DNA of 7,004 nucleotides from a virus. Its lineage: Duplodnaviria > Heunggongvirae > Uroviricota > Caudoviricetes. A program made the position numbers. Below, piece by piece: positions 1 through 3,000 of this stretch. Positions within the stretch are counted from its first letter, which is position 1; every line of letters begins with the position of its first letter. Where the stretch lies: positions 1 to 7,004 of IMG/VR virus record IMGVR_UViG_2529293078_000008; one strand, written 5' to 3'.

Positions 1-3000
1 GGAAAAACGAGTATTTTTAGTCATCCTGTTTACCTCTTTCTCAGGGAGTTTAGTCTCCAGGATTTCCGGGGCGGTTCAGTTTGCTAAAGAACTTGGTTCA
101 CAGATTAATTCAAGAGGTGGCTGGAAAGCTATTCAGGATTCTACGCAGACAATGCTAGGGAACTTGAAGAATACTTGGAACAACTCACTAACGGATATTT
201 TCAAAGGTTCTGAAGATGGTTTACAGGACTTCACAAGAAGCTTGACCAATCTTTTAAACGCTCTTGGTGGAACTGGTAAAACATTAGGTGAAAGTTTTGG
301 TAGCTTGATGAGCGATATGTCACATGGTATCGATTCATTGACTGATATCTCTTACAGGGTACGAGGTTTCTTTGATGAGGTGACATTGGCTTACCGTTCA
401 CTAAATGACACCCAGAAAAAAATTGTTGATGGTTTATCTGATGGGTTAATTGATGGCTTGAAGATGCTTGCTGTGGCTGTTACCGCTCAAAAGGCTGCAA
501 ATGTAGCTGGAGGCTTGTTAAACCTTGCAAATGCTGTCACTTCATTCGGTGACGCTGTTAATAAAGCTAAAGCTGGTAAAGTTGGTTCTTCAGGTGGTGC
601 GCTAAGTAAAGTCGGTAGAGTTGTCCTTTATGCTGAGTTGGTGAACTTTGCTCTTGATAATTTAAACCCTGAAGCAGCTAAGAATCCGAACTTACATCAA
701 TCAGGTATTGGCACAGAAACAAACTTCAACCCTGAATATAAAGGTGATTCATCTAAACCAAACCAAATTAATGAGGGATGGGCTAAGATTGGTAGTTCTA
801 TCGCTGACTGGTTTAATGGTGCGGCTAACAAAATTGCTAACTTCCAAGACCCGATGAATAACCTTGTACATAACGCACAATCAACTCCACCAGCTATCAC
901 AGGTGACATGGTTAATAGCAATGCTCAACTTGCAATGACTATTAGTGAACTATCACGCAAGGTAGACGCTTTAACAGCAGAAACTAAGAAGCCTTTGGCG
1001 GTTAATATCAAAGGTGAAGCAATTGTTAGGCCGGATGCACCATCTTTCTTTACTTTCAATCAAGCATCTAATGACCAGTTCACGCAGGATATGCTCTTAA
1101 GTTCAAGCTATCCAGAGGAAGAATAATAATAGTCGAATGCTACGTGAAATCTCTTGAACAGATATACCCACTGAAAAATAGAATTTACGTACAACACGCT
1201 TAACAGAGAAAATACTTATATATCAAAGGCTTGGTTAAAAATGATTAAAATACACTAAGCCTTTGAAATCAAAGGAGAATTTAATGATTTTTAGCAATCA
1301 AATCCGCTACAGTGGCAAAGATGGCGTTTACTTCCACTTAAGAGATAATGTAGATGCCTTCTTAACCTTATCAGCAACTGAAAACATGGAATTTGACAGC
1401 CCTATGCAGGTAACTACACAAAACATGCAATCAGGGCAAACTGTCACAGATAATGTGCAAAGAGCACCCAGAACAATCACTATTAGTGGTGTCGTTGTAG
1501 TTGGCTATGAAGGAAGCTTATTATTAACTCGTCAGGGTCAATTAGTAGAAAACTTCATCGACACTCTGGAAAACTGGCGTGACCAGAAGCAAATTATTTC
1601 GGTCATCTGTAAAGATGGAATTAAAATTGATGACTCCATTATTACAAACTTTAAAGCCTCTAAAGATGTTGGTATTTCAAACGGCCTAAGAATCCAATTA
1701 ACTTTTCAGGAAATTAACTTTAAAGCTATTGTTGGTCAGACTGATATTTCTGCTGCTACTGGAAAGACAGCTACTACAAATGATGGTGGTGCTACCAGCA
1801 AAAAGAACACTGGCAACACTACAACGAGTCTTGGAAGCCCTATGCTGACCTGTAAAGAGCTTTTTAGCTATTCGCCAAGTGAGCTATCAGATGAAGCGTT
1901 AAAAGCCCGTGTAACGTGCTCTAAGAGCGTTAGCGTTAAAAATGGTGAGAGCACCTTCACAGCCTCAGCTAATGAGCAAGCTTCAAAGGTGCTTAAGTCG
2001 GGTAATGCTTTACGGAAGTTTAGTGTGAATCCTAACAAGAAGGGCACTTACTAATTGGTATCATCTACCAATCCCTAAGCGTCTACCTCTTCCATATCAC
2101 CAGCAGGATAAATCCTTGTTACTGGTTCACCAAAGATAAGCATATCATCTAGTGACTGCATCTCATCGGTTGCTTCTTCAAGCGTTAAGGTGTGGTCATC
2201 TTTACCATCAAGAGGAAAACCACGAATCATATTTCCATTGTGAAGATATATATCCACCAGCTTTTCATTACCAGAAACAACAATCTCTTTCACCAGACGC
2301 TTAATGATAATCTGGGCTTCAGTTCTCCCCTCTACAGACTCCATATCAAGACCGCTTAAATCCAAGCTTGATACAGATTTTACCCTCGCCTTTTCTCGTG
2401 ATAACTGAACTATCAGTTCATCTTTTTCTTCCTGCTTAACCCGTAGTGCTTCCTGAATCTGAGTGATGTTAGGAAGCTGTATCAGCGTCTCAGTGAGTTT
2501 TTCCAGTTCACCATCAACGGTGTTTAATCTTCTTTGCAGCTCATCCAATTTAGCTGTGTCAGTAGCTTCATCGTGTAGCTGTGATAGTTTGCTAAACAGA
2601 CGACTACAAAGCTGTGTATCAAGTAACTTTCTGGACACTGTACCGTAATTACAACGGGACTCCTTATTACCATTGCAACGGTAAGTACCTTGATAAACGG
2701 GTTTACGTATCCCTGTAGGAGTCATTACAAGCCCACACTTACAACGAATAAGCCCCTTCAGTATGTTCACATATAGCCAGTGTTCACCGCTGGATGTTTT
2801 CCCCTTCCCTGTTTCCTCTAACAGTTGCTGTACAGCGTAAAACTTAGAATCTGTGACAATCTGAGGATAGAACCCTTCAATTTCTTCACGTAACACTGTT
2901 TTACGGTCTTCTGTAGAAATCTTAGCGGGAAGGTAACCTAATACACTTCGTGAAGTCAGGATGTGTTTAACGCTTAATGCTGACCAGTTACCATCCGGTT

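Follow-up and report, generated by a model that had tools for sequence, protein, structure and literature searches.

The window analyzed here, a 7,004-nt stretch of DNA (positions 1 to 7,004 of IMG/VR virus record IMGVR_UViG_2529293078_000008), consists of parts of three mobile elements: the end of an insertion sequence (IS; 1-77), the right end of an integrative island (78-3769), and the end of a Shiga toxin (Stx) prophage (from position ~3829). The island is a separate element of ~11 kb with its own large serine recombinase, and it encodes a tape measure protein (TMP) and a tail tube initiator (TI) resembling those of Felix O1-like phages. We propose, with a probability of roughly 60%, that the island is a satellite of virulent Felix O1-like (Ounavirinae) myoviruses that would build chimeric tails, working in the manner of the PLEs (elements that resemble phage-inducible chromosomal islands) of Vibrio. 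The mechanism is proposed by analogy with PLEs; the two tail proteins would enter the tail of the helper by their conserved ends. The broader claim, that the island represents a satellite family of Ounavirinae, undescribed but common, that is spread over E. coli, Salmonella, Shigella, and Citrobacter and exchanges TMP and TI, the innermost proteins of the tail, for versions of its own, stands for us at even odds. The identities of its genes, its boundaries, its attachment (att) sites, a circular form, its distribution, and the selection acting on it are documented below.

Boundaries and tail genes of the island

The first-pass annotation of the window assigned the left-hand genes to the lambdoid phage on the right, either as att-proximal cargo or as an unusual virion module, with the recombinase as the integrase of that phage. 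Boundary mapping refutes this model. Positions 3794-7004 are 100% identical to Stx2a phage records of the Sp5/933W type. Left of 3794, megablast and blastn searches of phage genomes found no temperate phage match. Only the 5' part of the TI gene (1299-1834) matches there, in Felixounaviruses, so that no sequenced temperate phage, Stx or other, includes the left block. In complete E. coli genomes whose wrbA is intact and free of an Stx phage, positions 78-3800 match a block at 89-94% identity; the block sits between ymdF and wrbA and is annotated, in order, as tape measure protein, phage baseplate protein, recombinase family protein, and wrbA. The window itself corresponds to contig KB007750.1 (7004 bp) of GCA_000316385.2. 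Further, positions 78-3832 are 99.97% identical to an intact island copy, L005 (L005:8795-12549; GCA_011900165.1).

With the empty site of K-12 as reference, the island is seen to integrate at wrbA codons 6-8, where attB (...CTGGTGCTTT followed by ATTATTCC), attL (...GTGCTTT followed by TACATAGC), and attR (...CTAGTGCTTT followed by ATTATTCC) share the core GTGCTTT. Comparison of the three sites defines the right end of the island with attR and the wrbA stub at 3719-3832 (plus strand), with the attR core at 3794-3800. The island supplies a new 5' end of wrbA, MSVKARI-, in a stub that begins at 3770; wrbA proper follows at 3791-3832, the only part of the window to which K-12 wrbA aligns. The Stx-type lambdoid prophage (Traversvirus/Sp5-like; 3822-7004, plus strand) is a separate element in the same gene. 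The annotated 7-bp insertion duplication of LC645440 (63154-63160), TTGAAAC, maps to window positions 3822-3828, placing the integration of the Stx prophage, which occurred later or independently, 30 to 60 bp away in the same wrbA. The gene is interrupted twice, the island replacing its first codons (MSVKARI-) and the Stx prophage cutting ~60 bp further in, and what is left is a stub of 23 codons (MSVKARILVLYYSMYGHIETMKH, then a stop; 3770-3841).

The recombinase gene (2075-3718, minus strand, 547 aa) does lie beside the two open reading frames (ORFs) and convergent with them, as the first-pass annotation had it. Its product contains PF00239 (Resolvase), PF07508 (Recombinase), and PF13408 (Zn_ribbon_recom) domains and matches PHROG 95, "integrase" (E = 2e-78), a combination that assigns it to the large serine recombinases of phage or island integrase type. 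The gene is always at the island end adjoining wrbA, and its product is the integrase for the wrbA 5' end. It does not belong to the phage on the right, since the Stx prophage has its own tyrosine integrase at the opposite end (444 aa; Arm-DNA-bind_2 and Phage_integrase). For annotation, the lesson is that a lambdoid prophage at wrbA should not be credited with the serine recombinase adjoining it, which is part of another element.

What had favored a single phage was that the left-hand genes adjoin phage genes in the window and converge with the recombinase gene. The two parts are nevertheless separated by the 7-bp duplication and the wrbA stub; identical Stx phages exist without this block and carry a tyrosine integrase at their other end; and the block is found in strains that lack the phage. 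It lies beyond the stub, outside the prophage bounds, and is not moron, effector, or defense cargo of the Stx prophage. The alternative of an unusual virion module came nearer to the truth, except that the module belongs to a separate island and not to the neighboring phage. In short, the observation was real but had been credited to the wrong element. The contrast in GC content on which it was based is confirmed (0.397 for 1-2054 versus 0.487 for 4366-7004, the rightward gene series beginning at 4366). The AT-rich block does not end at 2054, however, but includes the recombinase gene (GC, 0.425), giving 0.408 for 78-3769. The change in composition falls where one mobile element gives way to another and does not separate modules of a single phage. 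The GC content of the ~11.0-kb L005 island is 0.392, compared with 0.49 to 0.50 for its chromosomal flanks and 0.390 for Felix O1.

Of the two ORFs reported at 2-1126 and 1284-2054, the second is a complete gene. The first frame is indeed open, but because positions 1-77 are an IS end, it represents read-through from the IS into codons ~359 to 707, plus the stop, of a split TMP gene (78-1126, plus strand). This IS-truncated copy is 94% identical at the protein level to residues 362-710 of the TMP of the FORC_041 island; the intact TMP of L005 has 707 aa, compared with 742 aa in the phage, a difference that would predict slightly shorter tails. The suggestion that this gene encodes a tape measure protein was correct. 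The fragment matches PHROG 4036, "tail length tape measure protein," and the full-length protein matches PF20155 (TMP_3), TIGR02675, and Bas63 gp017 (PDB 9NDY_F; E = 3e-63); together with its position just upstream of the initiator gene, this family membership assigns it as a phage TMP.

The island TMP is ~30% identical to that of Felix O1 overall, and the nearest phage TMPs, at 30 to 38% identity, are all from Ounavirinae. Its conservation is concentrated at the ends. The N-terminal ~45 residues are conserved with Felix O1 (~76% identity in the FORC_041 type, by our own count), and the last 30 nt of the gene are 100% identical to Felix O1, giving the same C terminus, LLSSSYPEEE. In Bas63, the last 25 residues of the TMP touch the hub and the puncture apparatus (PMC12609058). 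Residues ~480 to 690 have no match in any sequenced phage, which argues against recent capture of the gene.

The second ORF (1284-2054, plus strand; 256 aa), whose ATG at 1284 is preceded by AAGGAG, had been considered a possible moron, effector, or defense gene of unknown function. It is the homologue of the Felixounavirus tail tube initiator. The protein, annotated as phage baseplate protein and Dit_like in Pfam, matches PF21821 (E = 7.6e-20), PHROG 3721 (E = 2.9e-136), and, over residues 5-256, the structure deposited as "Tube initiator protein (gp018)" of Bas63 (PDB 9NDY_A; E = 8.1e-125). These matches assign it as a myovirus tail tube initiator that is Dit-like and of the Bas63 gp18 type. 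Both proteins, then, are clearly homologous to tail components. As had been noted, the remaining tail module is absent next to them; the other tail genes were not found elsewhere in a standard order with typical GC content.

TI is 79% identical overall to Felix O1 ORF68 by BLASTP, and again the identity is unevenly distributed. We compared six island loci, two of which (L011 and L012) are partial and end before the TI gene. In the other four (L001, L005, L013, and L015), identity to Felix O1 over the tube-like domain (residues 1-185) is ~97% for the protein and 93% for the DNA, and window DNA at 1299-1829 is 93 to 94% identical to Felixounavirus genomes. This level of DNA identity holds for the TI gene of all island variants examined at or close to wrbA and yciI-yciA. 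Within the C-terminal extension, identity to Felix O1 drops to ~35% in the interior, whereas the last 10 residues are identical. A diverged island lineage (L019) encodes a TI ~72% identical to those of Suspvirus and other Ounavirinae. The tube initiator of Bas63 is hexameric and serves as the adapter between the threefold hub and the sixfold tube; its C-terminal extension of ~100 residues runs alongside the spacer protein (PMC12609058). We infer the identity of the helper from the 93% DNA identity of TI, the conserved TMP termini, and the equal GC content.

The TMP and TI genes stand in the same order as Felix O1 ORF67 and ORF68, whose products are virion components (PMC3185647; PMC12609058) and which correspond to Bas63 gp17 and gp18 (PDB 9NDY). 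The island pair shares the TMP fold family and gene order with this Felixounavirus tail core but lies in a bacterial chromosome together with an integrase. It also has a 157-nt spacer with a hairpin (1127-1283, plus strand) where the phage genes overlap. Felix O1 has no counterpart of this spacer; there, the end of the TMP gene (stop at 44109) and the beginning of ORF68 overlap. In an alignment of islands that are otherwise ~87% identical, the 3' ~90 nt of the spacer are nearly invariant, as is the hairpin at 1223-1266 with its 13-bp stem, and a 38-nt core is identical in all five of the island copies examined. The hairpin folds at -20.5 kcal/mol (z = -3.5), and the spacer contains a weak sigma-70-like site at 1155-1184 (promoter match, 9/12). 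The hairpin region may be a regulatory or processing element.

Gene content, mobility, and selection

In L005, the island begins with a small resolvase/invertase gene, followed by ~0.9 kb free of ORFs, a gene for a 328-aa Rep-like protein, small ORFs, a gene for a 236-aa protein that we call p236 (L005:6689-7399), a gene for a 72-aa basic protein, and then TMP, TI, and the recombinase. Intact copies vary: the left gene encodes a resolvase or a Dam methylase, an HNH gene is present or absent, and the basic protein has 62 to 72 aa. Other copies exchange the left part for a Dam methylase, an HNH endonuclease, or a 185-aa protein. A core of p236, a small ORF, TMP, the Dit-like gene, and the recombinase gene is kept throughout these varied copies. 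Elsewhere in the chromosome (the yciI-yciA region and the mdtG side), this core is accompanied by other serine recombinases in the same position, so that several family members can coexist in one cell. The core is present in Salmonella, again at wrbA, and p236 homologues are reported from Shigella and Citrobacter.

Among the 12 to 14 ORFs of each intact copy, in the several copies inspected, TMP and TI are the only virion genes recognized. Pfam and PHROGs searches recognized no capsid, terminase, sheath, tube, or lysis genes in the island copies. An island without most virion genes and without lysis genes cannot form particles alone. The 328-aa protein has weak matches to replication initiators (PHROGs 270, 678, and 428 at E = 8e-7 to 1e-4; initiator PHROGs taken together, E = 8e-7 to 4e-3) and to HTH_36. 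We looked for origin-type repeats in the noncoding stretch and found no convincing iterons. The small island proteins and p236 matched no family in Pfam, PHROGs, NCBIfam, or PADLOC. NCBI names p236 a transposase, a label that finds no support in Pfam, NCBIfam, or PHROG. Its predicted fold is a long helical (coiled-coil) hairpin with a small alpha/beta domain, for which structural matches are generic only. The family comprises 3112 clusters at 90% identity and 18 at 50%, and searches of 50,697 phage records by tblastn returned no match to the 328-aa Rep-like protein, the 185-aa protein, or p236. On these sequence comparisons, p236 is a compact, fast-diversifying, island-specific family without a phage homologue.

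A comparison of two islands with the complete Felix O1 genome (tblastx) found, beyond TMP and TI, only a short intergenic element and a weak HNH match (to Felix O1 ORF95; E = 1.5e-5; FORC_041 island only). We rejected the idea that the island is a shrunken Felix O1 on this account. The intergenic element is palindromic and lies in the divergent intergenic region of Felix O1 ORF40/ORF41 (21578-21643), downstream of the predicted P41 promoter of the structural-gene transcription unit. Copies of 50 to 60 nt at 82 to 93% identity were located, with coordinates L005:3013-3064, L015:5504-5566, and L012:6281-6300; other island variants are without a copy. The element could be a shared regulatory or recognition site.

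The attP junction predicted on the basis of attL and attR, used as an exact query, is present in three metagenome contigs. One of these, ERZ506742 NODE_633 (L031), is 11,233 bp long with an exact terminal overlap of 55 bp and represents a circle of 11,178 bp, in which the right end of an island variant runs straight into its left end and all island genes are present and intact. A 23-kb contig (OOBX01000469.1, L032; 6 kb examined), which could be an island dimer, contains a second junction. The island is, in sum, an integrative element with defined att sites, and the circle points to excision or at least to head-to-tail multimers.

The element is also common. A TI gene with its spacer was found in 455 of 5426 complete E. 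coli genomes (~8%) at 665 places, all of them chromosomal and none on plasmids, with up to five island-type TI genes per genome. Between islands, the ratio of nonsynonymous to synonymous substitution rates (dN/dS) is 0.23 to 0.33 for TMP, 0.10 to 0.18 for TI, and 0.22 to 0.40 for p236, at dS of up to ~1. These values point to an island family that is under purifying selection, functional, and not decaying.

They also bear on the view that the two genes are a functionless remnant, either captured Felix O1-like DNA or the last piece of a decayed prophage. The copy in the window is disrupted by an IS, an independent IS has entered the same gene in another strain, and only two of ~20 tail genes are kept, all of which would suit such a remnant. 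Against this, the gene pair, its order, and the conserved spacer have been retained in islands separated by dS of ~1 at dN/dS of 0.1 to 0.3, and the pair occurs in 8% of complete E. coli genomes and in Salmonella and Citrobacter. Moreover, Felixounaviruses are virulent, the Felix O1 record contains no integrase, and the unmatched TMP residues speak against recent capture. We consider a remnant very improbable.

Proposed satellite function and its rivals

If the island is a satellite of Ounavirinae, infection by a Felixounavirus would cause it to excise, replicate, and express its own TMP and TI. The parts of both proteins that would dock into the phage tail are kept (the TMP N terminus, the TMP C-terminal LLSSSYPEEE, the tube-like domain of TI, and the C-terminal tip of TI), and the interiors have been replaced. 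With docking ends kept and interiors replaced, the tails would be chimeras, composed of the tube, sheath, and baseplate of the phage and the core proteins of the island. Such tails could serve transfer of the island, damage the yield of the helper, or both. The recombinase inserts the island at wrbA codons 6-8 and rebuilds the 5' end of the gene.

The closest precedent is the PLEs, which integrate by a large serine recombinase and parasitize the virulent myovirus ICP1 (PMC12987554). As reported in 2026, PLEs have genes of their own for a tail assembly chaperone (TAC), a TMP, and a baseplate hub protein (BhuB), whose products take the place of the ICP1 proteins in PLE virions and produce chimeric tails; PLE11 additionally makes an 80-aa protein, Rta, that blocks the TMP of the phage (PMC12987554). 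The island, like a PLE, is a small chromosomal element with a large serine recombinase, and its candidate initiator of replication, a weak match, would correspond to that of PLEs. Both have a virulent contractile-tailed helper, presumed in the case of the island, and both encode a TMP and a hub-proximal protein without genes for tube, sheath, wedge, or fibers. PLEs are ~18 kb in size; the island is smaller, at ~11 kb. It further differs in its host (Enterobacteriaceae) and helper lineage (Ounavirinae), with no sequence relationship to PLEs detected or expected (no direct comparison with PLE sequences was made), and no RepA_N (Pfam), recognizable TAC, TcaP-like capsid remodeling gene, or Rta was found in it. 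By analogy, the island may be called PLE-like at most in its working, and it does not belong to the PLEs.

A second point of comparison is the set of E. coli satellites predicted by Barth et al. in 2023, with the order resolvase...Rep...TMP-baseplate-integrase (PMC10448857). Their example in O104:H4 strain 2011C-3493 (L017) resembles the island in having a resolvase, a long noncoding stretch, small ORFs and Rep, another small ORF, a TMP, a "phage baseplate protein," and an integrase at the end, and these satellites are of similar size (10 to 14 kb) in the same host species. All-against-all BLASTP, however, found no similarity between that example and the island except in the resolvase (45%). 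The Barth satellites further encode a major capsid protein and decoration proteins, use a tyrosine integrase that acts at tRNA-Thr (in the group, at a tRNA or the lysR site), and have RepA_N initiators mirrored by phage Odn-like nucleases; the island shows none of these features. Neither the four wrbA-island genomes that we checked nor the word wrbA appears in their Table S6 (PMC10448857). The sequence comparison places the island outside this group. We found no description of it in the literature on wrbA, serine recombinases, Felix O1, Ounavirinae, and satellites; the island is widespread, is undescribed as far as the searched literature shows, and fits recently established satellite biology.

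The main rival explanation is that the island is purely an anti-phage defense, in which TMP and TI act as dominant-negative decoys, admitted to Felixounavirus tail assembly by their phage-like ends and aborting it through their altered interiors, and the island is never packaged. Docking termini kept on replaced interiors would suit decoys as well, and no packaging or capsid function was recognized in the island. Interference with tail assembly by mobile elements is also established, by Tai (PMC11364771) and by Rta of PLE11 (PMC12987554). Both inhibitors, like the island proteins as proposed here, are encoded by mobile elements and aimed at tail assembly of an infecting phage, but they are small nonstructural proteins, whereas the island candidates are full structural homologues. 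An integrase, a replication initiator-like gene, several att sites, and an 11.2-kb circle describe an element that moves and amplifies, and ten island proteins had no match in PADLOC-DB v2, a library that predates Tai and Rta. We regard interference alone as unlikely. Since interference and transfer coexist in PLEs, this explanation overlaps the satellite reading rather than excluding it; the two tail proteins may mainly serve transfer, interference, or both.

Several observations weigh against a PLE-like satellite of Ounavirinae. The assignment of the replication initiator is weak, the 185-aa protein of other variants received no assignment from Pfam or PHROGs, and the 50,697 phage records contain no Odn-like counter-nuclease matching the island Rep candidates (tblastn), in contrast to the Barth and PLE systems. 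No TAC was found; BLASTP of p236 and the 72-aa protein (p72) against the Felix O1 chaperones ORF65 and ORF66 returned nothing. No packaging signal, small terminase, or capsid-size function was recognized in the island, and an 11-kb genome would have to be accommodated in an 86-kb capsid. The circular contig demonstrates excision, or at least head-to-tail multimers or tandem copies, and not encapsidation. IMG/VR offers no evidence for encapsidation either: it lacks the attP junction, and all p236 relatives there lie on provirus-type contigs of isolate genomes. The island TMP gene has been hit by IS elements at different positions in this strain and in at least one other, a pattern also compatible with a gene that the host can do without or that burdens it. 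Finally, induction by the helper, packaging, and incorporation into virions are presumed steps of the model.

Should the satellite reading be correct, chimeric-tail piracy, so far known only from Vibrio PLEs, would have arisen independently, and it would be accessible in a tractable system consisting of K-12, the BASEL phage Bas63, and a solved virion structure. The PLE work leaves open how a satellite gets its own TMP selectively into tails, a question that could be addressed in E. coli, and the pattern of conserved ends and replaced interiors in TMP and TI points to the contacts that matter. Felix O1-like phages are used in Salmonella typing and biocontrol and are candidates for therapy, and a common element that exploits or blocks them would affect their host range and efficacy. 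In current annotation the island is invisible, its genes being labeled "transposase," "tape measure protein," and "phage baseplate protein."

The insertion sequence and the prophage end

The IS end at positions 1-77 (minus strand) belongs to the IS3 family. It contains the inverted repeat (TGAACCGCCCCGG...) together with the start of orfA (MTKNTRF...), a gene that has its ATG at 24-22 and continues past the left edge. An annotated IS3-family element in another strain (L021:7811-9075), inserted at another position of the same gene, has an end 97.5% identical to this stretch. The IS probably explains why the contig stops at its left edge, and the island copy in this genome, with its TMP gene split, is probably disabled. 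IS3-family transposases are also annotated under the match in several other complete genomes.

On the right, the prophage genes that follow the 7-bp duplication encode, by Pfam, an AntA-like antirepressor, a TraR/DksA zinc finger protein, a DUF4752 protein, and an Ead/Ea22-DUF551 protein. An Rfam scan of the window found no match in 1-3800. Positions 4237-4325 (plus strand), in the noncoding end of the prophage a short distance upstream of the AntA-like gene, match sRNA-Xcc1 (RF02221; 69.1 bits; gathering score, 53; E = 2e-11). At the right edge, positions 6947-7004 (plus strand) match model positions 1 to 57 of the sok antitoxin RNA (RF01794; 50.9 bits) and are cut by the contig end; a hok/sok-type module probably runs on past the window.

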